From positions 256,001 through 320,000 of the forward strand of contig CAWDVR010000005.1 in the NCBI GenBank assembly GCA_963805975.1: a stretch of 64,000 nt of DNA, in the 5' to 3' direction. Shown here in pieces: positions 5,572-34,633 of the stretch (positions are counted from its first letter, which is position 1; the number at the start of each line of letters is the position of its first letter). Under the pieces are notes generated by a model. That model was not told where the DNA came from. It did no database searches and worked only from the letters and a program-made list of their open reading frames with translations. Both the position numbers and the translations under genes were made by a program. The stretch is from an uncultured Acidobacteriota bacterium. Its GTDB lineage: Bacteria > Acidobacteriota > Thermoanaerobaculia > Multivoradales > SZUA-115.

Positions 5572-5590
5572 ACGCCAGCACCACGAAGCG
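3782..5590. repeat. Copy 2 of ~1.8 kb near-identical NRPS segment
   Basis: Matches 446-2253 with scattered substitutions. Confidence 0.95.
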
Positions 5591-8500: not shown

Positions 8501-11500
8501 GGGCAGCGCCCCCCGGTCGGCGAGCGGCCGCACGGGCGCCGTCGCGGTGCGGCCGTGGCGGGCGAGCGCCGCCTCCAGCGTCTCCGCCAGCCCGGCCACG
8601 GTCGGCCGCTCGAAGAGCGCGCGCACGGGCAGCTCGACGCCGAAGGCGTGGCGCAGGCGGGAGATCACCTGGGTGGCGAGGATCGAGTGGCCACCGAGCT
8701 CGAAGAAGGACTGGTGGCGCCCCACCTCAGCCAAGCCCAGAAGATCGGCCCACGCCGCGGCCACCGCCTCCTCGACCGAGCCGCGCGGCGGCTCGTGGGC
8801 GCCGCCGCCGGCCTCGCCCTCCGGTTGTGGCGCGGGAAGGCGCGCCAGGGCGCGGCGGTCCACCTTGCCGTTGGGGGTCAGCGGCAGCGCGGCGAGCACC
8901 ACGAAGAACGACGGCACCATGGGCTCGGGCAGGCGCTCGCGGAGGGCGTCGCGGAGCTCGGAGCCCCTCACCCCGGCCCTCTCCCCGCTGCCGCGGGGCG
9001 AGGGGGCCGGAGGGGAGCCGGGCTCCGCATCTTCGCGGAGCGAGGAGGCCGGAAGGGAACCAGCTTCGGCGCCGCCCGGTAGCCCTGGGCTCCGGTCCCC
9101 TCTCCCCGCTCGCGGGGAGAGGGTTAGGGTGAGGGGCTCCCTCTCCGCCTCGAGGTAGGCCACCAGGGCAGGGCCGGTCGCCAGGTCCTGGCGCAGCAGC
9201 ACGGTGGCGGCGCGCACGCCGGGCTGCTCCACCAGGCGCGCTTCGATCTCGCCCAGCTCGATGCGGAAGCCGCGCAGCTTGATCTGGTGGTCGATGCGGC
9301 CCAGGAAGTCGATCTCGCCGGAGGGCAGCAGGCGGGCGAGGTCGCCGGTCGCGTACAGGCGCCCGCCGCGGCCTGAGAAGGGGTCGGGCACCCACTTCTC
9401 GGCGGTCAGGGCCGGCCGCCCGAGGTAGCCGCGGGCGAGGCCGTCGCCCGCCAGGCAGAGCTCGGCGGGCACGCCCAGGGGCACGGGTGCGAGGCGCCGG
9501 TCGAGCAGGTAGGCGGCGCTCCCCGAGACCGGCCGGCCGATGGTCACCCGCCGCGCGCCGCGATCGACGGCGGTGAATGTGGAGTAGGTGGTGTCCTCGG
9601 AGGGGCCGTAGAGGTTGAGCAGGCGCTCGACCTGGGGATGGCGGTGGAGGCGCGCGGCGAGCTCGGGCTTCAAGGGCTCGCCGGCCAGGTTGACGGTGCG
9701 CAGGCCGGCCGGCAGCCAGCCCTCGGCCAGGCGCTCGGCCACGGAGGGCACGGTGTTGACCAGGGTGAGGGCCGCCGCTTCGGACAGCTCGGCCACGGCG
9801 AGGCCGTTCTGGGCCCCGATGACGGTGCCGCCCAGGGCCAGGGGCACGAAGAGCTCGAAGACGGAGAGGTCGAAGTTGACGGAGGTGGAGGCGGCGACGC
9901 CGGCGAGCTCGGCCGGGGTGAAGGCCTCGGTCGCCCAGGCGACGAGGGCCACGGCGCTCCGGTGCTCGATGGCGATGCCTTTCGGGCGGCCGGTGGAGCC
10001 GGAGGTGTAGATGAGGTAGGCGAGGTTGGCGGCGGAGATGGTGGACGCGGTGGATGCGGTGGACGCGGCGGTGTCCAAGCTTGTGCCGGAGAGTAAGGCG
10101 GAGGCGTGGCCTGGGGTCGGTTGTTCCTGGCGGGTCCTGTCGCCGCAAGATTCCCCGCTGCGGTCCTCGCTGGCGCTGCGGTCCTCGCGGGGTCCCCCAT
10201 GCGGCGCCACCCGCCATGCAACGGGGGTTGATTCGTCGGAGTGTCCGGTAGAGCCGCCAACTGAGGAAGGAGAGAGGAGACGGAAAGAGGCGGGGGGGAG
10301 CTTCTCGGCGTGCTCGGGCTCCGCGATCACAGTGGTCAGCCCGGAGTCCTCGACTAGGAACGTGAGGCGTTCGGCCGGGTAGTTGGGGTCGAGCGGGACG
10401 TAGGCACCGCCGGCCTTGAGCACTGCCAGGAGGGCCGCCGGCAGGGTGGCGGAGCGCTCGAGGAGGACGCCGACCGGGGTCTCCGGTGCGATGCCCAGAG
10501 AGCGGAGCCGCGCGGCGAGGCGAGAGGCGCGGGCGTCGAGGCCGGCGTAGCTCCACTGCTCTCCGCTCCAGGAGACGGCGATCCGCTCCGGCGTCCGCTG
10601 TGCCTGCGCCTCGATGAGGCCGTGGAGCGTGCCGGCCGAGGGCTCGCGCGCCGTGTCGTTCCATTCGCAGAGGAGCTGGTGGCGGTCGGCGGAGGCCAGG
10701 AGGGCGAGGCTCGCGAGGGGCCGGTCCGGCGCCTCGGCGAGAGCCAGGAGCAGCGCCTCGAGCTGCGCCGCGAAGCGCTCGGCCGTGGCGCGGTCGAAGA
10801 GGTCCGTATTGAAGATCAGGCGGCTCGCCAGGGTCTCGCCGGCCTCGGCCACCATCCAGGCGAGGTCGAACTGGGCCGAGCGCTGCGGCAGCGGCAGGGA
10901 CTCGAGCGTCAAGTCGCCCAGGGCCATCCGGCCGCCCGCCTCGCCGAGGGCGAAGAGGCCGATGCCGGAAGCCTCGTGCCGCGGCGCGCGCTCCAGGGCG
11001 AAGAGCACGTCGAAGAGCGGCGAGCGGCTGGGGTCGCGCACCGGCGCCAGTCGCTCGGCGAGCCACGGGAAGGGCGCGTCCTGGTGGGCGAAGGCGGTGG
11101 CGGCGCGGGTGCGCACCCGCTCGATCCACTCGCCGGCGGTGGGGTTCCCGCCCAGGTCGGCGGCGAGCACCACGGGGTTGACGAAATAGCCCACCGCGCC
11201 CGCGAGGTCGGCGCTGGCGCGGCCCGAGGTCGGCACGCCCACGGCCAGCTCGCGCTGGCCGCTCCAGCGGCCGAGGAGCGCCTGGAGCGCGGCGGCGAGC
11301 GACACGAAGAGGGTGGTGCCGCGCTCGCGGGCGAGGGCCTGGAGCCTGGCCGCGAGCGGCGCCGCGAGAGCGCGCGAGACGGCCGCGCCGCGGAAGCTCT
11401 GGGCCGGCGGCCGCGGCCGGTCGGTGGGGAGCGCCAGCGGCTCGCGCTCGCCGCCCAGCTCCCGGCGCCAGTGCTCCCACAGCTCCGCGCCGCGCGCTCC

Positions 11501-14146
11501 GGCGAGGAGCGCGCGCTCGGCCGCGGCGTGGCCGGCCGGCGTTCCGCCGGGCTCGGGCAGCTCTTCCGGCCCGCGGCCGGCGTAGAGCGCGCCCAGCTCT
11601 TCGAGCATCACGGCGAGCGACCACAGGTCGGTCACGATGTGGTGCGTTGCGAGCAGCAGGAGGTGGCTGCCGCCCGGCTCGGCCAGCACCAGCACGCGCA
11701 GCAGAGGCCCGCGCTCGAGGTCGAAGGACCGCTCGGCGGCGTCGAGCAGGCACTCGGTGACCGCGCCCGGGGCGGCCTCCGCCGGAAGCTCCTCGAAGCG
11801 GACCTCCGGCGGCAGGGCCTCCCACACCACCTGCTCGGGCTCGCGGCCCGGCTCCTGGCGAAACGTGGTGCGCAGCGCCGGGTGCCGCGCCACGAGCCCG
11901 AGCACGGCGCGGGAGAGCGCCTCGCGGTCGAGCGCCCCGGAAACGTGCGCCGCACCCGAGAGGTGGTAGGCGGAGGTCGCCGGCGCCAGGCGGTCCAGGA
12001 ACCAGAGCGCCCGCTGGCCGTAGCTCACCGGATAGATGCCCGGTTCGGCCAGATACACCGCAAGCCGCGCGGCCTCCTCCGCCACGGCCACGGGCGTGTC
12101 GAGGCGAGCCAGGGCCGCCTCCACCATGTCGCCCAGCGTGGCGCCGGAGAGCAGGTCTTCGAGCGGCAGCTCGACGCCGAGGCTCGACTCCACCTGGTGG
12201 CGCACCTCGACGGCGGAGAGCGAGTCGAGGCCGGCGGTGGCGAGCACCGTGTCGGGCGCCAGATCCTCCGGCCGGGTGTGGAGCAGCCGTGCGAGCTTGG
12301 CGGCCAGGAAGTCGGTCACCAGCTTGCGCCGCGCCTCGCCACCCGCGGCGGCGAGAGCGTCGCGGGCCAGCTCCGGCTCGGCCGCGGGCGGCGGCTGGCG
12401 CGCCACGCTCGCCGCCACCACGTGCAGGCCGCCTTCGAGGTGCAGCTCGCGGCATTGGCGGCGCTGCACCTTGCCGCTGGTGGTGCGGGGCAGGGTGCCG
12501 GCGCGGATCAGCACCACCTCCGCGGCGTGGACCTCGTGCTCCTCGGCGAGCGCCCGGCGCACGGCCGCCACCACCGCCTCCGGGCTCTCGTCGCCGAGGC
12601 CCCCGGTCTCGGCCACCAGCACCAGCTCCTCGTTTCCTCCGCGCTCCACGGCGAAGGCCGCGGCGCCACCGGCGGCGAGCGCCGGGTGGCTGCGCTCGGC
12701 CGCCAGCTCCAGGTCCTGTGGGTAGACGTTCCGGCCGCGGACGATCAGCAGGTCTTTGAGCCGCCCGGTGATGAACAGCTCGCCGGAGTCGAGGAAGCCG
12801 AGGTCGCCGGTGCGCAGGAACGTGCCCGCGCCGGCATCGTCCGCGAGCCGCGCGCCGAAGGTCGCCACGGTTTGCTCCGGCTGCTGCCAGTAGCCCGCGG
12901 CCACGCTGGCGCCGGCCACCCAGATCTCGCCCACCTCTCCCGGCGGCAGGCGCAGGCCCGTCGCCGGATCGACGATCTCGACCCTCGTGCCCGCGAGCAC
13001 CGGGCCGCTGCCCACCAGGTCGCGGCTGCTGGGGTCGCCGTCGGAGACCGAATCCGCGCGGTGGGCCGCGAGGCCCCGGGCGTCGAACCGTCGCACCACC
13101 GGCGGCGTTCCCACGCCGCCGCCCGAGACCAGGAGCGTGGCCTCGGCGAGGCCGTAGCAGGGCCGGAACGCCTCGCGCCGGAAGCCGGCGGGCGCGAACG
13201 CCTCGGCGAAGCGCTCGAGGGTTCCGGCGCGCACCGGCTCGGCGCCGTTGAAGGCCACCTCCCAGCGCGAGAGGTCGAGCCGCGCCCGCTCCTCGGCCGG
13301 CACGCGCGCCACGGCCAGCTCGTAGGCGAAGTTGGGCGCGCCGCTGGTGGTGGCCTGGTAGCGGCTGATCGCCTCCAGCCAGCGCGCCGGCCGCTTGAGG
13401 AACGCCATTGGCGACATCCACACGCAGTGCGCGCCCAGGAACGGCGTGTGGAGCAGGTTCCCGATCAGCCCCATGTCATGGTAGAGCGGCAGCCAGGAGA
13501 CCAGCACCGAGCCCGCGTGGCGCTCGAAGGCGCGGCCGATCAGCTCCTGGTTGGCGAGCAGGTTGGCGTGCGTGACCATCACGCCCTTGGGCGCCGCGGT
13601 CGAGCCCGAGGTGTACTGCAGGAAGGCGAGGGCACCGGGGTCGACGGCCGGTGGCCGCCAAGTCGAAGGCGCGGTGGCCGCCGCCTCTTCGAGCGTCAGC
13701 CAGGCGATGGGAGCCAGCTCGAGGTCGCCCTCGAACCAGGCGCGCGAGCGGGCGAGCACGGCGGCGCTCGCGAGCCCCAGGGCCGGCCGGCAGTCCTCCA
13801 CCATCGCGGCGAGGCGCGGCAGGGCGCGGCGCGAGCGCGGCGGGTAGGCGGGCACGGCGACCGCGCCGCAATAGAGACAGGCGAAAAAGGCCACGGCCAG
13901 CTCGAGGCCGGGCGGGAACAGCAGCAGCACCCTCTCGCCGGGTGCGACCCGGCCTCCCAGCTCCGCCGCCAGGGCGCGCGCGCGTGCCGCCAGCTCGGCA
14001 TAGCTCAGCCGGTCGGACTCGACCTCACCGTCCAGCAGGAAGGTATAGACCGGCTTCTCGGGCCGCTCGGCGGCCCGGCGGTCGAGGATCTCGGCCAGGG
14101 TGCTTGCCGAGGGGTGTGGGGTGTAAGTGGGAGCGGTCCCTGCCAA
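5522..14146 (-). CDS. NRPS initiation part: FAAL-ACP-C-A(Ala)-T-C-A(Leu)
   Basis: Motifs: FAAL (LQYTSGST, SWLPLYHDMGLIG, CYGLAEATL, PRTTSGKVQR), ACP GLDSL, C HHIVTDLWS, A1 code DLFNNALTYK (Ala-type), T GGHSI, C HHIVADGWS, A2 code DAWFLGHVVK (Leu-type). TTG start. Internal compensating frameshifts at ~6900-7145. Confidence 0.95.
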   Translation of the reverse strand: MAGTAPTYTPHPSASTLAEILDRRAAERPEKPVYTFLLDGEVESDRLSYAELAARARALAAELGGRVAPGERVLLLFPPGLELAVAFFACLYCGAVAVPAYPPRSRRALPRLAAMVEDCRPALGLASAAVLARSRAWFEGDLELAPIAWLTLEEAAATAPSTWRPPAVDPGALAFLQYTSGSTAAPKGVMVTHANLLANQELIGRAFERHAGSVLVSWLPLYHDMGLIGNLLHTPFLGAHCVWMSPMAFLKRPARWLEAISRYQATTSGAPNFAYELAVARVPAEERARLDLSRWEVAFNGAEPVRAGTLERFAEAFAPAGFRREAFRPCYGLAEATLLVSGGGVGTPPVVRRFDARGLAAHRADSVSDGDPSSRDLVGSGPVLAGTRVEIVDPATGLRLPPGEVGEIWVAGASVAAGYWQQPEQTVATFGARLADDAGAGTFLRTGDLGFLDSGELFITGRLKDLLIVRGRNVYPQDLELAAERSHPALAAGGAAAFAVERGGNEELVLVAETGGLGDESPEAVVAAVRRALAEEHEVHAAEVVLIRAGTLPRTTSGKVQRRQCRELHLEGGLHVVAASVARQPPPAAEPELARDALAAAGGEARRKLVTDFLAAKLARLLHTRPEDLAPDTVLATAGLDSLSAVEVRHQVESSLGVELPLEDLLSGATLGDMVEAALARLDTPVAVAEEAARLAVYLAEPGIYPVSYGQRALWFLDRLAPATSAYHLSGAAHVSGALDREALSRAVLGLVARHPALRTTFRQEPGREPEQVVWEALPPEVRFEELPAEAAPGAVTECLLDAAERSFDLERGPLLRVLVLAEPGGSHLLLLATHHIVTDLWSLAVMLEELGALYAGRGPEELPEPGGTPAGHAAAERALLAGARGAELWEHWRRELGGEREPLALPTDRPRPPAQSFRGAAVSRALAAPLAARLQALARERGTTLFVSLAAALQALLGRWSGQRELAVGVPTSGRASADLAGAVGYFVNPVVLAADLGGNPTAGEWIERVRTRAATAFAHQDAPFPWLAERLAPVRDPSRSPLFDVLFALERAPRHEASGIGLFALGEAGGRMALGDLTLESLPLPQRSAQFDLAWMVAEAGETLASRLIFNTDLFDRATAERFAAQLEALLLALAEAPDRPLASLALLASADRHQLLCEWNDTAREPSAGTLHGLIEAQAQRTPERIAVSWSGEQWSYAGLDARASRLAARLRSLGIAPETPVGVLLERSATLPAALLAVLKAGGAYVPLDPNYPAERLTFLVEDSGLTTVIAEPEHAEKLPPASFRLLSPSSVGGSTGHSDESTPVAWRVAPHGGPREDRSASEDRSGESCGDRTRQEQPTPGHASALLSGTSLDTAASTASTASTISAANLAYLIYTSGSTGRPKGIAIEHRSAVALVAWATEAFTPAELAGVAASTSVNFDLSVFELFVPLALGGTVIGAQNGLAVAELSEAAALTLVNTVPSVAERLAEGWLPAGLRTVNLAGEPLKPELAARLHRHPQVERLLNLYGPSEDTTYSTFTAVDRGARRVTIGRPVSGSAAYLLDRRLAPVPLGVPAELCLAGDGLARGYLGRPALTAEKWVPDPFSGRGGRLYATGDLARLLPSGEIDFLGRIDHQIKLRGFRIELGEIEARLVEQPGVRAATVLLRQDLATGPALVAYLEAEREPLTLTLSPRAGRGDRSPGLPGGAEAGSLPASSLREDAEPGSPPAPSPRGSGERAGVRGSELRDALRERLPEPMVPSFFVVLAALPLTPNGKVDRRALARLPAPQPEGEAGGGAHEPPRGSVEEAVAAAWADLLGLAEVGRHQSFFELGGHSILATQVISRLRHAFGVELPVRALFERPTVAGLAETLEAALARHGRTATAPVRPLADRGALPLSAGQERLWFLEQWQPGTAAYNMPVAARLRGRLDIAALAEALAAIAARHEGLRASFAAGDGAPVLSIAPPSPARLPVVDLAGLGAPAREAAAQKLGRSEAARPFDLERGPLFRAAALRLGEGEHFLLLALHHIVADGWSIGVLLAELGALYRARLAGEAAELPPLPVQYADYAAWQRRQIAGEALAAGLAFWRERLAGAPEKLELPLDRPRPAVPSLAGGQVRFRLPAELRARLATVGSEAGSTPFMTVLAGFATLLHRVTGQRDLVLGAPVAQRPDPALEGLIGFFVGNLVLRVDLAGDPGFRALLARCRATVLEAQAHEIPFEHLVEALNPGRGGGHAPLFQVALAWQAQPLAMALPGLAVEPLPMHSGTAKLDLALSFLDLGDGGATAAPGGLWADLEYASDLFDRTSAERLAAQLIRLLDAVAREPERPLSTLPLLSAAEAHQLGHEWGRRRGTAFRPYPGQPDLPPQPESTRPGPSLRSGRQGSLASRRRGAGARGCGLRRRAPELRRAAGPGVGCSQRGSRRSAWRPEGVVALLAPRSAELVVGMLAALEAGASFLPLDPGHPPERLAAVVQDAGAAVLLTGQGQPAGWSPAVLVLTLEPLTLTLSPQAGRGDREESFEMGGVRNGVRGSFSADARAYVIYTSGSTGRPKGVEVRHRGLANLVAWHLATYGLTAEDRTSLVASPAFDASVWEVFPALAAGSRLEIPDEDVRADPARLAPWLVERRITLSFQPTPVAELLAARHWPSETVLRALLTGGDRLQAAPAAALPFRLLNHYGPTEVTVVTTAGEVAPRPAAAVSKAPSIGRPIAGLSLLVVDRSFAPLPVGVPGELLIGGAGLARGYLGRPALTAQSFVPDPRGAEPGARLYRSGDLVRWAAAGEIDFLGRIDTQVKVRGFRIEPGEIEAALAALPAVAQAAVLARDAPGGGKALVAYVVLHESVAQADAAETLRDALAARLPSYMVPSRFVVLACPAADAERQGGPACTA
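6646..6685. repeat. REP-like palindrome family A, in-frame in NRPS A2
   Basis: CCCCTCTCCCCGC-CT-GCGGGGAGAGGG-TTAGGGTGAGGGG, encoding PLTLTLSPQAGRG. Confidence 0.9.
7041..7067. repeat. REP-like element family B in the NRPS C-A2 junction
   Basis: TGTCGTCCTGAGCGCAGCGAAGGACCT; near-copy TGTCATCCCGAGCGCAGCGAAGGATCT at intergenic 55561-55587. Confidence 0.85.
8964..9136. repeat. Inverted doublet of REP-like family A, in-frame in NRPS A1 C-terminal subdomain
   Basis: 8964-9005 and 9097-9136 are oppositely oriented copies, encoding PLTLTLSPRAGRG...PSPRGSGERAGVRG. Confidence 0.9.
10120..10222. repeat. Imperfect palindromic element (family C), in-frame in NRPS A1
   Basis: Arms TGGCGGGT..CGCCGCA..CCCCGC and GCGGGG..TGCGGCG..ACCCGCCA enclose a 15-bp direct repeat CGCTGCGGTCCTCGC (10156-10170, 10174-10188). 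Confidence 0.75.
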
Positions 14147-18671: not shown

Positions 18672-19913
18672 TCAAGCAGCGGAGATTTCCACGCGATAGC
18701 GGTCCAGGTTGTCCATGTGGCAGTTCGGCCGCTCGACCGTCCGGTGCACGATGGTCTCGAACACGCCCGAGGCGCTGGGGTACATCACCGGCTCGAGCAG
18801 CTCGCTCTCGTCGCGGATCACGCCGTTGTTCTTGGCGATCTCGAAGAGCGGCGCCTCCGGGTAGACCCGCACCCGCGGCGTCACGTCCACGTCCTTGAAC
18901 GGGATGGTGTCGAGGGTGCGGAAGGTCTCGTTGACGGTCTCCGGCGTCTCGCAGGGATGGCCGAAGAGCAGGCTGCACGCCACCTCCATGCCCAGCTCGT
19001 GGCAGAGCTCGACGGCGCGCCGCACGTCCGCCACGGTGAAGCCCTTGCGCAGCTCGAGCAGCACCTTGTCGCACAGGCTGTCGACCCCGAAGTAGACCAG
19101 CTTGCGACCGAAGGGCGGCAGCAGCTCGGCGAACTCACGGGTGAAAGCGGCCTTGTGCGGGTTGATGAAGCCGTCCCAGTCGACATCGGTCATCCCCGCC
19201 TCGAGCATGGCGCGCAGGAGCTTGTTCGCCGACTTGACCGGGATGTTGAACACCGCGTCGCAGAAGAACACCTTCTTGATGCCTTGCGCGCGCAGGTTGG
19301 CGACCTCGTCGAGCACTTCCTCGGTCGGCCGCTGCACCACGTGGTGGCCGTCGACGCCGGGGTAGTCGCAGTACTGGCAACTGAATGGGCAGCCGAACTT
19401 GGTGGCGACGCCGATCTTGTCGCCCTTGTCCAGATAAAAAGTCTTGTCCATCACGTTGCGCTGGAAGCGGCCGTTGACGTACTGCGAGAAGTCGCGGATC
19501 ACCGGCGGCGGCTCCTCGCCGGCGGCGAGCATGGCGAGGAGCTTGTCCACCGCGCCGAAGCCCTTCGAGGCCAGGGCGTGGTCCACCCCGAGGTAGGCGC
19601 GGGTCGGCTCCGGCACCAGGTTGACGCCGCTGCCGGCGACCGCGATGCGGCCGGGATGGTACTGGCGGATCTCGCGGATCACCTCGCGGGTGCGCTGCAG
19701 CTCGAAGACCGAGTTGGCCGAGCCGCTGTCCAGGTTGCGGACGGCGATCAGGAGCAGGTCGTGGCCGGGGACGACCGAGAGGTCCCGGGACACGTTCATG
19801 TCCAGCACCGTGCAGTCCCAGCCCTCGTTGAGGAGGTGCTCGGCGGTGTACTCGAGGCCTACCGGGAAGACCGGGGGGTCGAGCACGTTGGGATTGAGCA
19901 GCAGGATTCTCAT
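18672..19913 (-). CDS. B12-binding/radical SAM enzyme (putative methyltransferase, TsrM-like N-terminus)
   Basis: CPFSCQYC cluster motif; N-terminal LLNPN..PP.FP.GL and IAVRNLD segments typical of cobalamin-binding radical SAM proteins. Start placed at MRILLLNPN. Confidence 0.85.
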   Translation of the reverse strand: MRILLLNPNVLDPPVFPVGLEYTAEHLLNEGWDCTVLDMNVSRDLSVVPGHDLLLIAVRNLDSGSANSVFELQRTREVIREIRQYHPGRIAVAGSGVNLVPEPTRAYLGVDHALASKGFGAVDKLLAMLAAGEEPPPVIRDFSQYVNGRFQRNVMDKTFYLDKGDKIGVATKFGCPFSCQYCDYPGVDGHHVVQRPTEEVLDEVANLRAQGIKKVFFCDAVFNIPVKSANKLLRAMLEAGMTDVDWDGFINPHKAAFTREFAELLPPFGRKLVYFGVDSLCDKVLLELRKGFTVADVRRAVELCHELGMEVACSLLFGHPCETPETVNETFRTLDTIPFKDVDVTPRVRVYPEAPLFEIAKNNGVIRDESELLEPVMYPSASGVFETIVHRTVERPNCHMDNLDRYRVEISAA

Positions 19914-21888: not shown

Positions 21889-22914
21889 ATGGACGCACAT
21901 CGGTTGGTCTTGACAGAAGCGGAGATCGCTCACATCCAGGCCCAGCTCGCCGAGCTCGCGGCGCGCTACAGCTCGGTGGAGGACCCGCGGTTCCATCAGC
22001 TCGCCACCCTCCATGCCCACGAGCTGCCGCGGCGCGTGCGCGAGGCGATGATCGACTTTCGGGCGAACGAGCCGGCCTCGGCGCTCCTCATCGTCTCCGG
22101 CTATCCCATCGACGGCGAGAAGATCGGCCACACCCCCAAGCACTGGGAGAGCGAGCGCGACGGCGGCCGGGCGCGCGAGGAATCGATATTGCTGGTCCTC
22201 CTGGGCTCGCTCCTGGGCGAGTGCATCGGCTGGTCCACGCAGCAGGACGGGCGGCTGGTGCACGACATCTTTCCCATCAAGGGCAACGAGCAGGAGCAGC
22301 TCGGCACCGGCAGCGAGCAGGTTCTCTGGTGGCACGTGGAGGACGCCTTCCACCCCCACCGCGGCGACTACCTGGGGATGCTCTGCCTCCGGAACCCGGA
22401 CCGCGTGCCGACCACCTTCGCCGCCATGGCCGACCTCGACCTCGACCCCACCCATCTCACCCACCTGTTCGAGCCCCACTACTCGATCCGCCCGGACGAG
22501 TCGCACCTGCAGAAGAACAAGAAGAGCGATCGCGCGGTCGACGGCGAGCTCGCGGTGGCCTACGAGCGCATCGAGAAGATGAACTCGCAGGCCGAGAAGA
22601 TCGCCGTCCTCTTCGGCGACCCGCGCGCGCCCTACATCCGGCTCGACCCGTACTTCATGGAGCCGGCGGAGGACCCCGAGGCCCGGCAGGCCTTCGACAC
22701 GCTGGTCAAGGCGGTGGACGAGAAGCTCGGTGACCTGGTGCTCGAGACCGGCGACTACTGCTTCATCGACAACTTCCAGGGCGTCCACGGCCGGCGGCCG
22801 TTCAAGGCCCGCTACGACGGGCAGGACCGCTGGATGAAACGCATCAACATCACCCGCGACCTGCGCAAATCGCGCCCCTTGCGGGCCAACGCCCAGTCGC
22901 GGCTCATCAGCTAG
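21889..22914 (+). CDS. Fe(II)/2-oxoglutarate arginine beta-hydroxylase (VioC/MppO-like, TauD superfamily)
   Basis: QDGRLVHDIFP, WWHVEDAFHP (HxE iron ligands), DN..VHGRRPFKARYDG.DRWMKR. Confidence 0.88.
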   Translation: MDAHRLVLTEAEIAHIQAQLAELAARYSSVEDPRFHQLATLHAHELPRRVREAMIDFRANEPASALLIVSGYPIDGEKIGHTPKHWESERDGGRAREESILLVLLGSLLGECIGWSTQQDGRLVHDIFPIKGNEQEQLGTGSEQVLWWHVEDAFHPHRGDYLGMLCLRNPDRVPTTFAAMADLDLDPTHLTHLFEPHYSIRPDESHLQKNKKSDRAVDGELAVAYERIEKMNSQAEKIAVLFGDPRAPYIRLDPYFMEPAEDPEARQAFDTLVKAVDEKLGDLVLETGDYCFIDNFQGVHGRRPFKARYDGQDRWMKRINITRDLRKSRPLRANAQSRLIS

Positions 22915-22919
22915 ACGCC

Positions 22920-24083
22920 ATGCTCGGTCACCTCGCTCCGGCGCTCCTCGAGCGCTTCATGCGGCAGTACTACTTCGCCGTCGACGCCGACATCGGCTCG
23001 AGCGGCGTCGAGAACTTCTCGCTCGCCGACCTGAAAGCGCTCCTGGGCATCGCCCAGGAGGAGCTCGACTCCCTGGTCTTCCGCGACAGCCAGACGCTCG
23101 GCGGCAGCGGTCTGCGCCAGGCCCTGGCGGACCGCTTCGTGGGCGGCGACGCGGCCCGGGTGATGGTGACCCACGGCTCGACCGAGGCGAACTTCCTGAT
23201 CATGAGCACGCTCCTGGCACCGGGCGACGAGGTGGTGGTGCTCGACCCGCTCTACCAGCAGCTCTACGCCGTGGCCGAGGCGAGCGGTGCGGTGCTCAAG
23301 CGCTGGCCGATGCGGGTGGAGGCCGGCTTCCGCCCCGACCTCACCGAGCTCGAGGGCCTGCTCACCCCCGCGACCCGGATGGTGGTGGTGAACTTTCCCC
23401 ACAACCCGACCGGCGTCACGCTCACCCGCGGCGAGCAGGCCGAGCTGCTGCGGCAGGTCGAGCGCACCGGCGCCTACCTGGTGTGGGACGGCGCCTTCAG
23501 CGAGCTGACCTACGACGAGCCGCCGCTGCCGGAGCCCACGCTCGTCTACGAGCGGGCGCTCTCCATGGGCACTCTCTCCAAGGCCTACGGCCTGCCCGGC
23601 CTGCGGGTCGGCTGGCTGATGGCGAGCCCCGACATCCTCGAGCACTGCGCCCACCTCCGGGACTACACGCTGCTCCATCTCTCGCCGCTGATCGAGCTCC
23701 TGGCCCAGCGGGCCATCGAGCAGGCGGACGTGCTGGTGGGGCTTCGCCTCACCGCCGCCCGCGAGCAGCGCCGGATGACCGACGAATGGATCGCGCGCCA
23801 CCAGGGCGCCCTCGACTGGGTGCCGCCGGCCGGCGGCGTCTGCGGCTTCCCGCGCTTTGCCGAGGGAGTGGACGTCGACCGCTTCTGCGAGCGCCTGGCC
23901 GAGGAGCACCGCGTGCTCCTGGTGCCCGGCTCCTGCTTCGGCCAGCCGCAGCACGCCCGCCTGGGCTTCGGCTGCTCCAAGGCCGAGCTGGTCACCGGGC
24001 TGGACGCCGTCTCCCACCTGCTCGGCGAGGTGCTGGGGCGCGAGATCCCCGCTCTTCAGGCTGCGCCGGCAGCGAAAGCCTGA
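22920..24083 (+). CDS. PLP-dependent capreomycidine synthase-like (VioD-like) enzyme
   Basis: ALLERFMRQYYF..DIGSSGV N-terminus, NFPHNPTG, TLSKAYGLPGLRVGW; starts 5 bp downstream of the VioC-like gene. Confidence 0.85.
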   Translation: MLGHLAPALLERFMRQYYFAVDADIGSSGVENFSLADLKALLGIAQEELDSLVFRDSQTLGGSGLRQALADRFVGGDAARVMVTHGSTEANFLIMSTLLAPGDEVVVLDPLYQQLYAVAEASGAVLKRWPMRVEAGFRPDLTELEGLLTPATRMVVVNFPHNPTGVTLTRGEQAELLRQVERTGAYLVWDGAFSELTYDEPPLPEPTLVYERALSMGTLSKAYGLPGLRVGWLMASPDILEHCAHLRDYTLLHLSPLIELLAQRAIEQADVLVGLRLTAAREQRRMTDEWIARHQGALDWVPPAGGVCGFPRFAEGVDVDRFCERLAEEHRVLLVPGSCFGQPQHARLGFGCSKAELVTGLDAVSHLLGEVLGREIPALQAAPAAKA

Positions 24084-24877
24084 GACAGAAACGCGAACGA
24101 GCCGGGAAGCGCTCCCGCCACGTAGTCCATGTCGTGGCCGCCGGGACGCTCTTCGTAGTGGTGGGCGATGCCGGCCGTTTTGAGCGCCTGGTGGAAGGCC
24201 CGGTTCATGGCCAGCATGCGGTCGTGGTCTCCCGCGCCCACGTCGAGGTAGAGGGCGGCGGCGGGCGCGAGGCCCGGTGACAGGTAGCGGTAGGGGTCGT
24301 ACTCCTGCCGCGTGGCCGAGCCCGGTGGCCCCCACACTGCGTCGTGCTCGGCCTCGGTCGGCATGAACTCCGGCCGCGCCGCTCCCAGGGCGGCGTAGGG
24401 GTCGCCCTCGCGGCGCGGTGCGTCGAACGCCCCGGCGTGGCAGGCCACGGCCGAGAAGAGGCCGGGGTGACGGGCGGCGAGGAGGAAGGCCGCGGCGCCG
24501 CCCATCGAGAAGCCGGCAAGCGCCCGTCTCGCGCCATCGATCGGCCGGCCGATGCGGGCCTCGACCGCGGAGATCAGCTCGCCCACGAAGTAGTCCTCGT
24601 AGCGCAGGCCCTGGTGGTCGTTGATGAGCCAGCGCCGGAAGCTCTCCGGAAAGGCGGAGACCCAGGGCGCGGCCAGCACCTGCGCCGCGATCTCCGGGTG
24701 GGAGAGGAAGGACTCGGCGGTGCCGCCCCAGCCGTGCAGGAAGTAGCAGATGGGGAGCGGCACGCCGTCGTCCGCTCCGTCCGGCACCACCATCAGGCAG
24801 CGCTTGGCCGGGCGCGCGAGGCTGCGCGACGGGTGCCGCAGCGTGAGCACGCGCGGGTGCGAGGCGAGGCCGTTCAT
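24056..24877 (-). CDS. Alpha/beta-hydrolase esterase (S-formylglutathione hydrolase-like), possible thioesterase
   Basis: YFLHGWGG, GFSMGG nucleophile elbow, DVGAGD, GGHD; ATGA overlap with the adenylase gene. Confidence 0.85.
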   Translation of the reverse strand: MNGLASHPRVLTLRHPSRSLARPAKRCLMVVPDGADDGVPLPICYFLHGWGGTAESFLSHPEIAAQVLAAPWVSAFPESFRRWLINDHQGLRYEDYFVGELISAVEARIGRPIDGARRALAGFSMGGAAAFLLAARHPGLFSAVACHAGAFDAPRREGDPYAALGAARPEFMPTEAEHDAVWGPPGSATRQEYDPYRYLSPGLAPAAALYLDVGAGDHDRMLAMNRAFHQALKTAGIAHHYEERPGGHDMDYVAGALPGSFAFLSQAFAAGAA

Positions 24878-26424
24878 GCCGGGGAGCTGCCGAGCCCCGC
24901 GGCGAGCGCCCGGCGGTCCACCTTGCCGCGGTCGGTGCGGGGCAGGGAAGAAACGAGATGGATCTCCGCCGGCACCATGTACGGCGGCAGGCGCTCGGCG
25001 AGCTGGCGGCGCCACGTCTCCGGCAACGCGGCGTCGGGCTCCGCGCCCTTCGCCGCCACCCAGGCCACCAGCCGCTCGCCGACCACGGCCACCGCCGTCT
25101 CGCCGACCGCCGGCAGGGCCGCGAGCTGCTCTTCGACGTCCCCCAGCTCGATGCGGTAGCCGGCGAGCTTGACCTGGAAGTCCTTGCGGCCGTGGAAGAG
25201 GTAGCGACCCCGGCCGTCGACCGACACCAGGTCGCCGGTGGGGTAGAAGGCACGCCCGCTTCCCGGCTCGCGCCAGAGCACGGAGGAGTCCACGGCGCCG
25301 TCCCGGAAGTAGCCGGAGAGGAGCGAGGCGCCGGCCACCAGCAGCTCGCCCACGCCGTCCTCCTCCTGGCGCACCAGGAGCTCGCTGTAGGGGCAGGCGC
25401 GCCCGATCGGCAAGGGGCCCGGGTCCTCGAGGTCGTCCGCGCCCACCTCGTGATAGAGGCAGACGTTGGTTTCCGTGGGGCCGTAGAGGTTGGCGAGCAG
25501 GGCTCCCGGCACGAGCTGCGCGAGCTCCACCACCCCGGCCTTGGGAAAGGGCTCGCCGGCGAAGAGCACGGCGCGCAACGAGTCCAGCCGCGCCGGCCGC
25601 CGGCGCTGGCTGGCGGTGATGCGGGCGAGAACGGTGGGCACCGAGTACCAGACCGTGACCGCCTTCTGCTCGATGAAGCGCGCGAAGGGCTCGCCGCGGC
25701 CGAGCGCGTACTCCGGCACCGGCAGCAGACAGGCGGCAGCGCGCACCGCCGCGAAGAGGTCGAAGACCGAGAGATCGAAGGACAGCGAGGCGTGGTTGGC
25801 CACGCGGTCCTCGGGGCGGAGGAGGGCGAGGTCGCCGGCCCAGTCGACGAAGGCGCAGGCCGCGCGCTGGGAGAGGGCGACGCCCTTGGGCACACCGGTC
25901 GAGCCCGAGGTGCAGAGAATGTAGGCCAGCTCCTCGTCCTCGGCCGCGTGGGGCCGGCCGTTGCCGCCCGCGGCCAGGAGGTCGCGCCAGGAGAGCACCT
26001 CGAGGCCGCCTGCTGCCGGGAGCGGCGCCGCCGTGGGCGCGTCCACCACCACGGCGAGCCGCAGGCCGGGAGGGGCGAGGGGTGCCAGGTGGGCGAGCTC
26101 CAGGCGCCGGCAGACCACGGCCTCGCAGCCGGTCACCGCCAGCACGGCGGCGGCGCGGGCGGCCGGGGCCGCGATGTCGATCGGCACGTAGGGAGCGCCG
26201 AGGCGCAGGGCGGCGAACACCGCGACGGGCACCTCGGCGCTCTTCGGCAGCCACAGGCCGATGCGGGCGCCGGGCCCCACGCCGCGGCGGGCGAGGCCGG
26301 CGGCCACCGCCGCGGCCCGGCGCTCGAGCTCGGCGTAGGTGAGGAGGTCGCTGCCGTGCTCCACCGCCGTGCGGCCGGGGTGGTTGGCGGCGGCGGCGGC
26401 GAGATAGTCGTAGAGCGGCGACAT
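24874..26424 (-). CDS. Stand-alone adenylation enzyme, L-proline-activating PltF/RedM/CloN4 type
   Basis: CTSGSTGVPKG, SFDLSVFD, WYSVP, LFAGE, NLYGPTETNVC; hand-read code DLFYLALVCK matches the pyrrole-pathway Pro adenylase signature. Confidence 0.85.
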   Translation of the reverse strand: MSPLYDYLAAAAANHPGRTAVEHGSDLLTYAELERRAAAVAAGLARRGVGPGARIGLWLPKSAEVPVAVFAALRLGAPYVPIDIAAPAARAAAVLAVTGCEAVVCRRLELAHLAPLAPPGLRLAVVVDAPTAAPLPAAGGLEVLSWRDLLAAGGNGRPHAAEDEELAYILCTSGSTGVPKGVALSQRAACAFVDWAGDLALLRPEDRVANHASLSFDLSVFDLFAAVRAAACLLPVPEYALGRGEPFARFIEQKAVTVWYSVPTVLARITASQRRRPARLDSLRAVLFAGEPFPKAGVVELAQLVPGALLANLYGPTETNVCLYHEVGADDLEDPGPLPIGRACPYSELLVRQEEDGVGELLVAGASLLSGYFRDGAVDSSVLWREPGSGRAFYPTGDLVSVDGRGRYLFHGRKDFQVKLAGYRIELGDVEEQLAALPAVGETAVAVVGERLVAWVAAKGAEPDAALPETWRRQLAERLPPYMVPAEIHLVSSLPRTDRGKVDRRALAAGLGSSPA

Positions 26425-26449: not shown

Positions 26450-27613
26450 CTAGAGCCCGAGGGCGCTCGCCAGGAGGTTTTTCTGGATGTCGGAGGTGCC
26501 GGAGGCGATGGTCCCCGCCACCGCGTCGCGCACGTCGCGCTCGGCGACGGCGCCGTCGGCACCCGGGCGGCGCGAGTAGCCGGCGCCGCCCAGCACCCGC
26601 AGGCCGTCGAGGTGCGCGGCGAGCGCTCCTTCGGAGAGCACCAGCTTGGCGAGCGGGGCGAGCGTCGAGTCCCCGCGCTCGAAGAGGGCCTGGGCGGCGG
26701 CGCGCAGCACCAGGCGCATCTGCCAGTACTGGGCGAGCATGCCGACGATGCGGTGCGAGACCGCCTGGTAGCTCGCGATCGGCTGGCCGAACTGGCGGCG
26801 CTCGCGGGCGTGCTCCACGGCGCGCTCGATCTGCCGCCGCACGGCGCCCACCTGCGGCGCCTGGATCAGCGCCCGCTCCCAGGCGAGCGAGGTCTGGAAG
26901 ATCTGGTTGCCGCGGCGCTCGCGGCCGAGGAGGGCGCCCTGCGGCACGAAGCAGTTCTGGAGGGTGAGCGAGGCGAGCGGCGCGCCCTCGAGGCCCATCA
27001 GCGGCTCGGGCGGCCCCACCGCGAGGCCCGGCGTCTCGCGGGGCACGAGGAAGGCAGAGATGCCGCGGAAGTGCAGCCGCGGGTCGCTGGTGGCGAAGAT
27101 CACGAACAGGTCGGCGGCCGGCGCGTTGGTCACCCAGCGCTTGGCGCCGTCGAGCACGAACCCGCCGCCTTCCGCGCGGTAGCGGGTGGCGAGGCTCATC
27201 ACGTCGGAGCCGGCCCCGGCCTCGGTGGCGGCATGGGCACCCACCAGGCTGCCGTCGAGGAGCGGCGGCAGCCAGCGCGCTTTCTGCTCGTCGCTGCCGA
27301 AGTCGGCCACCGGCCGGGCCACGGCCCAGAGGTGCGCGCCGGCGCCGAACAGAGGGCCGAATGCGGGCAGGCCGGCGCCCAGGCCCTCGAGGAAGTCCAG
27401 CACCTCCTCGCAGCCGAGCCCCGGGCCGCCGAGCTCCGCGGGGAACGGCAGGCGAAAGAAGCCGCAGCGGCCGAGGCCCCGCCACAGCTCGCGGCTGAAG
27501 CCCGCCGCGTCGCCGTCAGCCGAGCCGTTGACCGCCGGGGCCAGCTCCTCGGCGGCGATGCGGCGCGCCTCTCGGTAGCGCTCCGTGGGCGGCGGAAAGC
27601 ACGGCTCGAGCAT
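26450..27613 (-). CDS. Acyl-CoA dehydrogenase family, L-prolyl-PCP dehydrogenase-like (PltE/RedW)
   Basis: GAHLWAV, AHAATEAGAGSD, GAKRWVTNAP, RRQFGQPIASYQAVSHRI, TIASGTSDIQ; adjacent to the Pro adenylase. Confidence 0.88.
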   Translation of the reverse strand: MLEPCFPPPTERYREARRIAAEELAPAVNGSADGDAAGFSRELWRGLGRCGFFRLPFPAELGGPGLGCEEVLDFLEGLGAGLPAFGPLFGAGAHLWAVARPVADFGSDEQKARWLPPLLDGSLVGAHAATEAGAGSDVMSLATRYRAEGGGFVLDGAKRWVTNAPAADLFVIFATSDPRLHFRGISAFLVPRETPGLAVGPPEPLMGLEGAPLASLTLQNCFVPQGALLGRERRGNQIFQTSLAWERALIQAPQVGAVRRQIERAVEHARERRQFGQPIASYQAVSHRIVGMLAQYWQMRLVLRAAAQALFERGDSTLAPLAKLVLSEGALAAHLDGLRVLGGAGYSRRPGADGAVAERDVRDAVAGTIASGTSDIQKNLLASALGL

Positions 27614-27630: not shown

Positions 27631-29028
27631 TCAAGCGCCAGCGACGAGGTACTTGTGCTGTTCTTCCTCGAGCGCCGCGAGGCTCCGGGAGACCACCTCG
27701 TCGGGGATCACGCAATCCTCCATCATGCCCTGGAGGTGCTCCTGGTAGCCGCTCAGGTCGAAGGCGCCGCCGCCGCTGATGTTGACCAGCAGCACCGGCG
27801 ACTTGTCGCCGCTGCCGGCGCGGCGCGCCTCTTCGATCGCCGCGCAGAGCGCGTGTGCGGACTCGGGCGCCGGCAGCACGCCCTCGGTGCGCGCGAAGAG
27901 CATCGCGGCGTCGAACACCGCCCGCTGCGGGCAGGCCACGGCCTCGAACACGCGATCGGCGAAGAGCGCGGAGAGAAACGGCGAGGTGCCGTGGTAGCGC
28001 AGGCCGCCGGCGTGGATGCCGGGGGCCTCGAAGCCGCTGCCCAGGGTCATCATCCGCGCCACCGGGGTGGTGCCGGAGAAGTCGGTGCGGGTGTAGGCGT
28101 AGACCCCGCGGGTCATCTTGGGGCAGCCCGCCGGCTCGACCGCCACGCAGCGCGGCCGGTGCGGCTGCGCTGCGTCGCCCAGGAAGGGGAAGGTGATGCC
28201 GGCGAAATTGCTGCCGGCGCCCATGCAGGCGAAGATCGCGTCCGGGTACTCGCCCAGGGCCCGCATCTGCCCCAGGGCCTCCTGGCCGATCACCGTCTGG
28301 TGCAGCAGCACGTGGTTCTCGCCGCTGCCCACGGCGAAGAGGGTGCGCTCGCCGGAGGCCGCCATCTCCAGCGCCTCGCCAGTCGCCAGCGCCAGGGTGC
28401 CGAGCTTGCTGGCGCTCTCGGCAAGGGCGCGCCGCCCGACGGCGGTCAGGTCGCTCGGGCTCTCGTGGAGGCGGGCGCCGAAGATCTCCATCATGGTGCG
28501 CCGCTGCGGCTTCTGGCGCAGCGACACGGCCGGCATGAAGACCGTGCACTCGAGGCCGAAGAGCTGGCAGGCGAAGGCCAGCGCCGTGCCCCACTGGCCG
28601 GCGCCGGTGCCGGTCACCAGATGTCGCACCCCGGCCTGCCGGTAGTAGTAGGCCTGGGCGAGGGCGCTGTTGAGCTTGTGGCTGCCGGAGATGTTGGCGC
28701 CTTCATACTTGTAGTAGATGCGCGCCGAGGTGCCGATGGCGCGCTCCAGGCGGCTGGCGCGGCGCAGCGGCGTCGGGCGGTAGAGGGCATAGCACTCGCG
28801 CACCGGCTCGGGGATCGCGATCTCGCGCTGCGTGGTGTTGAACGACTGGCGGGCGATCGCCAGCGGCATCTTCGGCAGGTGGCGGTAGAGGTCGTCGGCC
28901 AGCGGGTCGGCCGCCCCCGGCAGCTTCGCGCCCGCTTCGCCGTGCTGCGGGTAATCGGCCAGGAGGTTCCGCCAGGTGGTGGGGACGCCGATCGCGCTCT
29001 CCGTGGTGGGCTCGGTCAAAACGCTCAT
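27631..29028 (-). CDS. TrpB2-type PLP beta-substitution enzyme with a remodelled active site
   Basis: YRPTPLRRA, KYEG..SGSHKLNSA (PLP Lys), TGAGQWG, HAGGLRYHG, PAPESAHA; no trpA in the window. Confidence 0.92.
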   Translation of the reverse strand: MSVLTEPTTESAIGVPTTWRNLLADYPQHGEAGAKLPGAADPLADDLYRHLPKMPLAIARQSFNTTQREIAIPEPVRECYALYRPTPLRRASRLERAIGTSARIYYKYEGANISGSHKLNSALAQAYYYRQAGVRHLVTGTGAGQWGTALAFACQLFGLECTVFMPAVSLRQKPQRRTMMEIFGARLHESPSDLTAVGRRALAESASKLGTLALATGEALEMAASGERTLFAVGSGENHVLLHQTVIGQEALGQMRALGEYPDAIFACMGAGSNFAGITFPFLGDAAQPHRPRCVAVEPAGCPKMTRGVYAYTRTDFSGTTPVARMMTLGSGFEAPGIHAGGLRYHGTSPFLSALFADRVFEAVACPQRAVFDAAMLFARTEGVLPAPESAHALCAAIEEARRAGSGDKSPVLLVNISGGGAFDLSGYQEHLQGMMEDCVIPDEVVSRSLAALEEEQHKYLVAGA

Positions 29029-29369
29029 CCAGCCTTCCCCCGCGCCGCCTTGGCGGCGAGAAAATCGATCAAGTCGCCGAGCGTCACCGGTGCGGCCTCG
29101 TAGAGGTCCTCGTCGTCGACCACGATGCCCAGCGCACCCTCCATGCCGAGCAGGAGGCGCAGGAACCCCGAAGAGCTCACCACCTGGCTCAGCAGTCGGT
29201 CCTCTTCGGCAATAGAAGAGGGGCTATCCGAGGTCAGCCGGCAGACCTCCTGCCAGAGGAGCGCGGCGACGCGCTCGCGGCCGTCCGCGGCCCCTGCCGG
29301 TTCGAGGTGGGCGCCGGCCCCTCCTGTTTCGAGGTCCAGAGCCGGCGGTGCATAGGAGGGGTCTCTCAA
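29025..29369 (-). CDS. Stand-alone carrier protein (PCP/ACP), start uncertain
   Basis: Small acidic helical protein, EDRLLSQVVSSSGFLRLLLGMEGALGIVVDDEDL..TLGDLIDFL; ATGA overlap with the TrpB-like gene. Confidence 0.75.
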   Translation of the reverse strand: MRDPSYAPPALDLETGGAGAHLEPAGAADGRERVAALLWQEVCRLTSDSPSSIAEEDRLLSQVVSSSGFLRLLLGMEGALGIVVDDEDLYEAAPVTLGDLIDFLAAKAARGKAG

Positions 29370-29384
29370 GCCGGGTCACTCCGT

Positions 29385-30899
29385 TCAGGACAAATGTGCA
29401 GTCGGCGGCGTTGTAGTGACAGCCGCGGCGCGCGGATCTTGCTCCAGGGGCCCGGGACGGGGGGAACGGCGCCGCTCGAGCAGCCGCCCGCCGCGGATCA
29501 GCCACGCCCAGGCCGCCACCGCCAGGTCGAATCCCAGCCAGCGGGCGATCCGCCGCTGCCGGTTGTAGCGCGCCAGCGCCTCGGCATAGGGCAGGGTGGT
29601 GTGGGCGATCAAGGTGTAGATCGGCACCCAGCGCCGCGGGAAGAAGCGGGCCAGGAGGCCTTCGCAGCCTTTCCTCGCGATCACGTGCGGGTCGCGGATC
29701 TTGTCGCGCAGCTCGACGAAGTTGTGGATCGAGAGCGCCGCGAGCGCGTCCGTGTTGCGCTTCCTGGCGCTCTCGTAGGCGGCGAAGGCGGCGCCGCGGT
29801 CCTGGTGGTGCCGGTCGAGGGAGTCGGCGAGCGCCGCGCAGTCCTCGAAGCCGGCGATCATCCCCTGGCCGAAGAACGGCACCACGGTGTGGCAGGCGTC
29901 GCCCACCAGCACCACCCGCTGCCCGTCGTGCCAGGGCGAGGTCTGGACGGTGGCAAAGGTCGAGGTCGGATGGCGCTCGAAATCGCGCTCCAGGGTGGGG
30001 AGAAGCGGCACCACGTCCGGGAAGCGGGCGGCGAAGAGCGCCCGCACGGCCTCGTCGGTCGAGAGCGCGGCGAAGCTCGGCCGCGCGCCCTCCCGCCACG
30101 GTGCCGTGCTCGGCGAGGAGCCGTTCGCCGCCGCCCGGGCGGGCCCCTCCGCGGGCATCGTGCAGATGCAGTTGAACGAGCCGTCCCGGTTGGGAAGCGC
30201 CATCAGCATGCAGTCGCCGCGCGGCCAGACGTGGAGCGCGTGCGGCTCCATGCGGTAGGAGCCGCCGTTCGCGGCCGGGATCTTCAGCTCCTTGTAGTCC
30301 CAGGACAGGAACTTCTGCTGATAGTCGGCGCGCTTGCCGCGGTGGAGCGCCTGGCGCACGGCCGAGAACGAGCCGTCGGCGCCGATCACCAGATCGCTCT
30401 TGGTGGTCACCGAGCGCTGGGTGTCGAGGTCGCGGAAGAAGACCGTGCCGGACTCGGGGTCGAGACGCAGGAACGACTTGCGGAAGTGGAAGCGGATGTT
30501 GCTCCGCCCCTCGGCGGCGGTCATCAGGGCGCTGTTGAGGTCGTTGCGCGCGATGGCGTGCAGGATCTCCTCGCCCGAGCGGCCGTAGGGGAAGAAGCGC
30601 CGGCTGCCGTCCAGGCCGTGGACGATGCGGCCCCGGACCGGCACGGTGAGCGGCATCACGGCCGGCAGCAGGTCCGCCCGCTCGAGCACCGCGAGGCCGC
30701 GCCGCGAGAGCGTCATGTTGAGCGAGCGGCTGGGGCCGACGAACCCCTTGCGGATGTCGCCCCGCAGCTCGTACACGTCGACCTCGAAGCCGCGCCGCGC
30801 GAGCTCGATCGCGGTCAGGCTGCCGCTCATGCCGGCGCCCACCACACACACCAGATTGCCGTTGCCGGAAGTCATGCCCTCGTCGATCCGTTCTCTCAT
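29385..30899 (-). CDS. Kynurenine 3-monooxygenase-like FAD monooxygenase
   Basis: VGAGMSG, RSLNMTLSRRG, GADGSFSAVR, YKELKIP, ALHVWPRG, GDACHTVVPFFGQGM.AGFEDC. Confidence 0.88.
   Translation of the reverse strand: MRERIDEGMTSGNGNLVCVVGAGMSGSLTAIELARRGFEVDVYELRGDIRKGFVGPSRSLNMTLSRRGLAVLERADLLPAVMPLTVPVRGRIVHGLDGSRRFFPYGRSGEEILHAIARNDLNSALMTAAEGRSNIRFHFRKSFLRLDPESGTVFFRDLDTQRSVTTKSDLVIGADGSFSAVRQALHRGKRADYQQKFLSWDYKELKIPAANGGSYRMEPHALHVWPRGDCMLMALPNRDGSFNCICTMPAEGPARAAANGSSPSTAPWREGARPSFAALSTDEAVRALFAARFPDVVPLLPTLERDFERHPTSTFATVQTSPWHDGQRVVLVGDACHTVVPFFGQGMIAGFEDCAALADSLDRHHQDRGAAFAAYESARKRNTDALAALSIHNFVELRDKIRDPHVIARKGCEGLLARFFPRRWVPIYTLIAHTTLPYAEALARYNRQRRIARWLGFDLAVAAWAWLIRGGRLLERRRSPRPGPLEQDPRAAAVTTTPPTAHLS

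Positions 30900-30949: not shown

Positions 30950-34633
<3,684 letters not shown>

Follow-up and report, generated by a model that had tools for sequence, protein, structure and literature searches.

Glycine stands in place of the indole-activating glutamate in a TrpB2-derived PLP enzyme of an uncultured Acidobacteriota bacterium, and the same replacement marks a whole clade of such proteins, the genes of which are linked to a carrier protein gene. The locus was studied in a 64,000-nucleotide stretch of DNA (hereafter the window) and compared with related loci. Since the indole-activating Glu is lost and the neighbouring carrier is predicted to bind, the enzyme likely joins serine to a proline-derived pyrrole held on the carrier. 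The chemistry we infer, at a probability of about 55%, is that a likely phosphoserine-dependent beta-substitution enzyme alkylates pyrrolyl-2-carboxyl-S-ACP, after which an esterase would release carboxypyrrolyl-alanine. The protein is conserved, and its function is probably a new enzymatic one on a known scaffold.

The TrpB variant and its clade

The open reading frame encodes 465 residues (GC3 0.95), with G140 in LVTGTGAGQWG, K118 in SGSHK, E237 in GSGENHV, A271 in MGAGSNF and G420 in NISGGG. The G140 column of the alignment holds the Glu of ETGAGQ(W) in S. solfataricus TrpB2 (6HUL) and in 4QYS, which together with 6HTE are the top PDB matches. The PLP lysine, the GAGQW loop, the Trp after GAGQ and an Arg at the D300 position are present, features given for TrpB2 in the accessible part of PMC1854888, and the AlphaFold model (pLDDT 91.2) has the TrpB2 fold, matching 6hul_B at Z 52 (rmsd 2.1 A, 410 residues aligned, 42% identity). 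The protein also shares with TrpB2 the carboxylate and phosphate loops, Trp146, Arg344 and the lack of an adjacent trpA. It differs in the Glu-to-Gly, SVL-to-SGE and GGG-to-GAG changes, in forming a clade of its own and in being carrier-linked in biosynthetic operons; it passes the NF009057 profile (558.8 bits, cut-off 366) and stays below the cut-off of TIGR01415 (trpB_rel; 471.9 bits against 518.85). The indole-activating Glu (E104/E105/E109) by which a tryptophan synthase is recognised is missing.

The original prediction had pointed to this Gly codon, to an intact PLP lysine and to three altered segments. The codon is GGC, and among the best 120 of 7999 matches (query included) position 140 is Gly in 118 and Ala in 2, with Glu237 in all 120 and Ala271 in 119; the exchange is thus real, and the GSGENHV and MGAGSNF segments are altered as described. 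The third segment, NISGGG, is present as well and proves to be private, since His420 is kept in 77 of the 88 clade members; Gly occurs there in the window protein only, and Ala in its ortholog in locus L002. A sequencing error at Gly140 is ruled out by the clade-wide Gly/Ala and by a dN/dS of 0.23 against that ortholog (86%). Public contigs from 95-98% relatives cover the codon, among the 40 of 585 difference rows listed, and were set aside as evidence.

In a FastTree phylogeny of 168 rows, from which four diagnostic columns had been taken out, all 88 Gly/Ala-type rows formed one clade (support 0.998) nested in TrpB2. Position 140 is Gly in 85 and Ala in three of them, against Glu in all 75 comparison TrpB2. 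Relative to these 75 proteins, G236, E237 and K304 are fixed in 88/88 clade members and A271 is found in 86/88. Invariant throughout the 88 are K118, A143-G144-Q145-W146, S235, H243, G270, G272-S273-N274 and R344, and H117 is likewise kept. R344 corresponds to the Arg through which TrpB2 contacts the phosphate of phosphoserine, as stated in the portions available of 10.64898/2026.03.11.711232 and PMC1854888.

Loss of the Glu could also signal a pseudoenzyme, a scaffold or an enzyme capable of elimination only, with pyruvate and ammonia formed from phosphoserine; or the protein could be an ordinary indole scavenger, with E237 taking over from the lost residue. E237 is indeed invariant and co-occurs with Glu140 in none of 150 distant representatives, and plant TSB-like pseudoenzymes, which have naturally lost the same Glu, have neither synthase nor phenol activity according to the accessible part of PMC12727527. 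The plant proteins, however, are described there as TrpB1-derived, with Glu-to-Ala, and as activators of TrpA, whereas the window protein is nested in TrpB2, has no TrpA nearby and is predicted to bind a carrier on that face. We hold a role of this kind to be very unlikely: the other catalytic residues are invariant, the new pocket residues are coordinated, the carrier linkage is strict, and the genome has a canonical trpBA. The latter comprises its single other TrpB, a Glu-type TrpB1 adjoining trpA on another contig, so that tryptophan supply is independent of the variant gene. Invariant catalysis, a remodelled indole pocket, the separate trpBA and a biosynthetic operon together give good support to the earlier idea of a naturally evolved non-indole beta-substitution enzyme, the activity itself being predicted.

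The clade is patchily distributed. Among 401 genomes of the same phylum, the best 29 non-self matches are all Glu-type, a count outside which 32 further matches fall, and with this query an ortholog was found in one of 40 close relatives. In Streptomyces, 16 of the best 30 loci are of the Gly/Ala type, and a search of plasmids yielded a single clade member. Outside the clade, the catalytic Glu has been lost to Asp, Ala, Ser or Gln among the 150 distant representatives; other TrpB2 lineages with these residues (L257, L155, P0124, P0135 and others) have different loop motifs.

Gene neighbourhood in the window and in other loci

The variant gene is the middle one of a compact same-strand run comprising an NRPS module, a flavoenzyme, the carrier, a dehydrogenase, an adenylation (A) domain and an esterase, inside a lipopeptide NRPS cluster that also has VioC/VioD-type genes and a B12 radical SAM gene (Table 1).

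Table 1. Coordinates of the features discussed, in window positions.
Feature	Position	Strand	Remarks
Multimodular lipopeptide NRPS genes	1..14146	(-)	same cluster, extending left of window
B12-dependent radical SAM enzyme	18672..19913	(-)	
GntD/VioC-type hydroxylase and VioD capreomycidine synthase	21889..24083	(+)	NF041363, TIGR03947, both above cut-off
Alpha/beta esterase (GFSMG), predicted carrier-release hydrolase	24056..24877	(-)	PF00756; overlaps adenylation gene by 4 nt
Stand-alone adenylation enzyme, proline type	24874..26424	(-)	code DLFYLALVCK
Acyl-CoA dehydrogenase, putative prolyl-carrier dehydrogenase type	26450..27613	(-)	best PDB matches 6cxt, 4irn, 5zw0
TrpB2-derived PLP enzyme, Glu-to-Gly clade	27631..29028	(-)	G140, G236/E237, A271, K304; K118, R344 intact
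Gly140 codon GGC at catalytic-Glu position	28609..28611	(-)	
Acyl/peptidyl carrier protein	29025..29369, start putative	(-)	stop overlaps TrpB ATG by 4 nt
Kynurenine-3-monooxygenase-like flavin monooxygenase	29385..30875	(-)	directly upstream of carrier gene
NRPS module T-C-A-T, candidate product consumer	30950..34633	(-)	code DALLLGSVTK

The PF00550 match of the window carrier is weak (E 0.004, below cut-off) and is stronger in the carriers of relatives; its attachment Ser is invariant in 40/40 aligned family members, the window copy included. For the dehydrogenase, the top NCBIfam matches are RedW and PigA, both below cut-off (NF045652, 319.7 against 650; NF053553, 290.6 against 500). The code of the A domain agrees at 9/10 positions with that of the L-proline--carrier ligase 6o6e (DLLYLALVCK, read from the alignment), and its best core matches, by sequence only, are two proline ligases, 6o6e and 7thn. 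The code of 7thn, DLFYIAWVCK, likewise taken from the alignment, is identical to that of the actinomycete group of clade loci, and the A-domain codes of the clade are the same as, or one residue from, those of these two PDB entries.

From its sequence, the VioC/VioD-type pair would make a separate building block of the same cluster, a capreomycidine-type residue. A 48% homolog of the radical SAM enzyme abuts the carrier gene in L198, which makes the window enzyme a candidate pyrrole methyltransferase. The lipopeptide NRPS, continuing leftward, has an acyl-ligase-like start domain and at least ten A domains; its reading frame is broken at 5475/5522, at the junction of an A domain with its T domain, which may be a frameshift. 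A module of the 'AAVSK' code, considered as a shared consumer, was rejected, its core identity to the window module (0.41-0.45) being no higher than its identity to other modules. Outside the cluster, a tyrosinase gene adjoins a TonB-dependent receptor gene (39619-43628).

Across loci, no partner of clade TrpB genes is as constant as the carrier. Its gene lies at most 600 nt away in 125 of 139 Gly-type loci and in none of 72 Glu/Asp-type loci, counts from which short-flank loci are left out (14 of 153 and 5 of 77, respectively). In most of the exceptions among the Gly-type loci, an acyltransferase gene has been inserted. The carrier profile was trained on the carriers of the first set, and held-out loci matched it as well (77/97). 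An A domain and a dehydrogenase both occur in the fetched flanks of 51/56 Gly-type and 0/24 Glu-type loci (80 genome loci, L061 being assigned to its group by context because its gene call is broken), and in 32 of the 40 metagenome loci of at least 8 kb (40 of the 80 fetched). These loci are kin, and include the duplicate L035/L126, so that the counts are not independent trials. Aligning the TrpB families and collecting homologs with their neighbourhoods, as had been suggested, thus gave one Gly/Ala clade linked to a carrier; the protein, first described as a single odd one, belongs to a large clade whose carrier partner has predicted binding.

The question arises as to whether the pyrrole is alkylated on the carrier or off it. 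An esterase homolog is found in 29/56 clade genome loci and in 5/40 metagenome loci of at least 8 kb; in L198 the esterase is fused to the A domain. Were it to act first, freeing pyrrole-2-carboxylate (or pyrrole, after decarboxylation) for the TrpB variant, carrier binding would be absent or would serve channelling only. ChmF frees N-hydroxypyrrole-2-carboxylate from its carrier, as the accessible part of PMC10849742 relates, a UbiD decarboxylase gene follows the esterase gene in L176, and the invariant K304 could bind a carboxylate. We nevertheless regard this main alternative as unlikely, since the carrier is kept beside the TrpB variant where the esterase is absent (27/56 genome loci and 35/40 long metagenome loci) and the predicted docking uses clade-specific residues. 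The UbiD gene is seen in one locus and is equally compatible with a step after alkylation; its closest matches, 6h6x/6h6v, are presumably furan-dicarboxylate decarboxylases. For alkylation on the carrier, which we prefer, the UbiD of L176 fits further pyrrole tailoring, as does the carrier-adjacent radical SAM homolog of L198. Counting against it, some actinomycete loci have a separate triad and acyltransferase without TrpB (L222), and an acyl-pyrrole thioester is less nucleophilic than either indole or pyrrole.

The original analogy with phenol use and tyrosine synthase activity fares less well, being without contextual support, as the neighbours indicate a proline-derived pyrrole. A natural tyrosine synthase would act on a phenol, for example the product of the neighbouring kynurenine-monooxygenase-like enzyme. 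A271 stands at what we take to be the G229S position of TmTyrS, and the part available of PMC12727527 cites E105G/A/S as making phenols usable by engineered TrpB. This is barely conceivable here: the monooxygenase gene occurs only in the window locus and L002 among all collected loci, for which reason it was rejected as a conserved cassette partner, and the cassette has no conserved gene that would supply a phenol. Pyrroles had been listed merely as a screening option, one with which the neighbours agree. If the substrate is carrier-bound, usefulness as a biocatalyst for free substrates becomes less certain.

Beyond the proline-type cassettes, loci in which other genes stand in for the proline genes (L059, L112, L174, L072, L172) still have an adjacent carrier, and distant subclades keep it while swapping other genes, with other A domains in L072, L172 and L166. 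In locus L059 (1400-12400), a clade member is accompanied by a carrier, an esterase, a hydrazine synthetase of the cupin/MetRS type and two lysine/ornithine N-hydroxylases. L112 (19600-35200) and L174 lack the proline genes; there, a clade member and a carrier occur with AsnB, an acyl ligase, an AurF-type oxygenase and an FAD/NAD(P)-binding protein of 630 residues, and L112 also has pabB/DAHP genes. In L179 (7945-9741), L180, L209 and L019, the TrpB variant is directly preceded by a PaaK-like ligase that is fused to the carrier or adjoins it. In uncultured actinomycetes (L003-L028, L181-L254), the cassette forms part of glycan loci that contain an LpxL-like acyltransferase and, in many cases, a Lant_dehydr_N (PEARL-like) protein standing alone, L213 and L222 having two carriers or two triads. 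L035 with L113-L115, L053, L054 and about 25 Streptomyces loci share an orphan cluster in which the cassette is accompanied by an NRPS of 5 to 9 modules, among them Asp/Gly-type ones, and by SbnA/SbnB-like Dap, terpene synthase, polyprenyl synthase, TauD and ECH genes; the module codes gave no identification of its product. Streptomyces Glu-type TrpB2 also occur in cassettes (L165, L168-L170) with an A domain (DLLQ[LV]T[VI]DSK), a dehydrogenase, a transglutaminase-like protein, an ectoine-synthase-like cupin and a carrier that does not abut TrpB2, so that such a neighbourhood alone implies no new nucleophile.

Predicted carrier docking and the proposed reaction

A model of the TrpB variant with the carrier reached a score of 0.63, where the best of three controls, none of them another carrier or a canonical TrpB2, gave 0.00; the complex was folded as a monomer, without pantetheine or PLP. 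The score mark is reached by 116/157 solved and 2/215 mismatched pairs, a calibration only roughly valid for the alignments of our own used as input (117 rows for the TrpB variant, 40 for the carrier). Contact agreement between runs was at least 68% and partner pLDDT at least 78. The modelled interface comprises residues 38-47 (with attachment Ser39) and 57-63 (with invariant Asp59) of the carrier, and residues 46-63, 132-134 and 319-323 of the TrpB variant. Residues 319-323 align with LBCA 272-276, and positions adjoining these are placed at the alpha-beta interface in the portion available of PMC11917138. Sixteen clade-diagnostic columns had been listed before the comparison, and four of them (56, 60, 62, 320) fall within the 27 interface residues, where 0.96 would be expected (p 0.012). 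The canonical Glu60/Glu62 have become Arg60/Ser62 in the clade, opposite an acidic carrier patch in the model. Carriers use the same helix to dock many enzymes, which counts against docking specificity. The model supports binding of the carrier by the TrpB variant, and suggests that the carrier may occupy the place of TrpA at the mouth of the indole channel, as judged from the tunnel-lining residues and arm length generally given for such proteins.

From the specificity code, the adenylation enzyme would load L-proline on the carrier. Going by its family, the dehydrogenase would then form the pyrrolyl-2-carboxyl-S-carrier, with a stop at the pyrroline being possible; AnaB stops at that stage. 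The carrier may sit on the TrpA-type face of TrpB, as the model and alignment suggest, and feed the ring down the indole channel into a pocket putatively reshaped by Gly140 and Ala271, where Glu237 may stand in for the lost NH-binding acid. An aminoacrylate, likely from O-phospho-L-serine, would alkylate the ring at C4/C5 or N1, and the esterase would free (carboxypyrrolyl)-L-alanine for an NRPS module. In the actinomycete glycan loci, an acyltransferase or a PEARL-like protein might take the tethered product in the esterase's stead.

An earlier intermediate might serve as the tethered nucleophile, either prolyl-S-carrier through its amine N or the pyrroline enamine through C3; the alanyl ring so formed, substituted at N or C3, would later be oxidised or cyclised to a bicyclic lactam. 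Carrier linkage and docking would fit equally, TrpB reacts with indoline (title of PDB 3pr2), distant clade members lie in hydrazine and N-oxidation clusters, and PLP beta-substitution with amine nucleophiles is known from Tln5, as the accessible part of 10.1101/2025.10.30.685158 describes. This seems to us quite unlikely, for thiotemplated pyrroles are usually tailored once the ring has formed, as far as the available text of PMC10849742 goes, and self-release as a lactam would make the conserved esterase needless. Alkylation of the finished pyrrole remains our preferred reading.

The Glu-to-Gly change in engineered TrpB favours enolate nucleophiles, and a role upstream of the A domain can be pictured in which (phospho)serine and a carbon acid such as oxaloacetate yield a substituted pyrroline or proline, which the A domain then loads. 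A reaction of this sort has been proposed for a 'tryptophan synthase-like' enzyme of demiguisin biosynthesis, and CouR1/DmgAA4, likewise fold-type II PLP enzymes of secondary metabolism with a proposed serine-type electrophile and a non-indole nucleophile, have been proposed to form pyrrole or carboxyproline (both from the accessible part of PMC11446937). These enzymes, CouR1 being compared by description only, differ in using free oxaloacetate as nucleophile together with decarboxylases. Such a role is highly improbable for the window protein: the A-domain codes fit plain proline ligases, none of the decarboxylases, reductase and linked kinase of that route was seen in the window cassette, and carrier docking would be left unexplained.

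A wider reading, which we offer tentatively and at a little less than even odds, is that the clade forms a carrier-dependent class of 'TrpB' in which an acyl carrier replaces TrpA and the pantetheine arm would bring varied tethered nucleophiles through the indole channel to the aminoacrylate. With the same reserve, these nucleophiles would be pyrroles here, and the subclades linked to hydrazine, AurF and glycan genes would use other rings or N-nucleophiles. Should the class be real, amino acids so far undescribed may be expected in lipopeptides and surface glycans of Acidobacteriota, myxobacteria, Alphaproteobacteria and actinomycetes.

Relation to known systems

The engineered TmTyrS (Tm9D8* E105G, PDB 8EGY) has the same Glu-to-Gly change at the indole-activating position, a change named as that of a tyrosine synthase in the portions available of PMC13174591 and PMC12909874. 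It differs from the window protein in its TrpB1 scaffold, its use of serine and free phenols and its laboratory origin, whereas here the change is natural and the scaffold a TrpB2, which has gained a Glu and for which the predicted substrate is a tethered pyrrole. If our reading is correct, the clade parallels in nature the best-known mutation of engineered TrpB and reaches non-indole beta-substitution through coordinated changes at G140, G236, E237, A271 and K304.

The triads PltF/L/E, PigI/G/A, RedM/O/W, Bmp4/1/3 and ChmJ/I/H, the last with its hydrolase ChmF, resemble the cassette in A-domain code and carrier, and putatively in dehydrogenase subfamily and release hydrolase. To our knowledge, the steps downstream of such proline-to-pyrrolyl triads are halogenation, methylation, N-hydroxylation, PKS extension and acyl transfer, and full-text literature searches found no PLP aminoacrylate alkylation on pyrrolyl carriers. 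PLP-dependent alkylation would, on our reading, join pyrrolyl-carrier chemistry, and a new non-canonical amino acid is predicted in orphan lipopeptides.

Full-text searches, most subscription papers lying outside their reach, found no description of the clade or the cassette. The 2024 survey by Almhjell reportedly covers 18,051 sequences, and it or its supplements may already record natural Gly variants. Members listed in ten 90% clusters have only generic names, 'TrpB-like' or 'tryptophan synthase', and many clade members belong to cultured Streptomyces and Myxococcus strains, so that the motif pair GTGAGQW and GSGE is a ready marker for genome mining.
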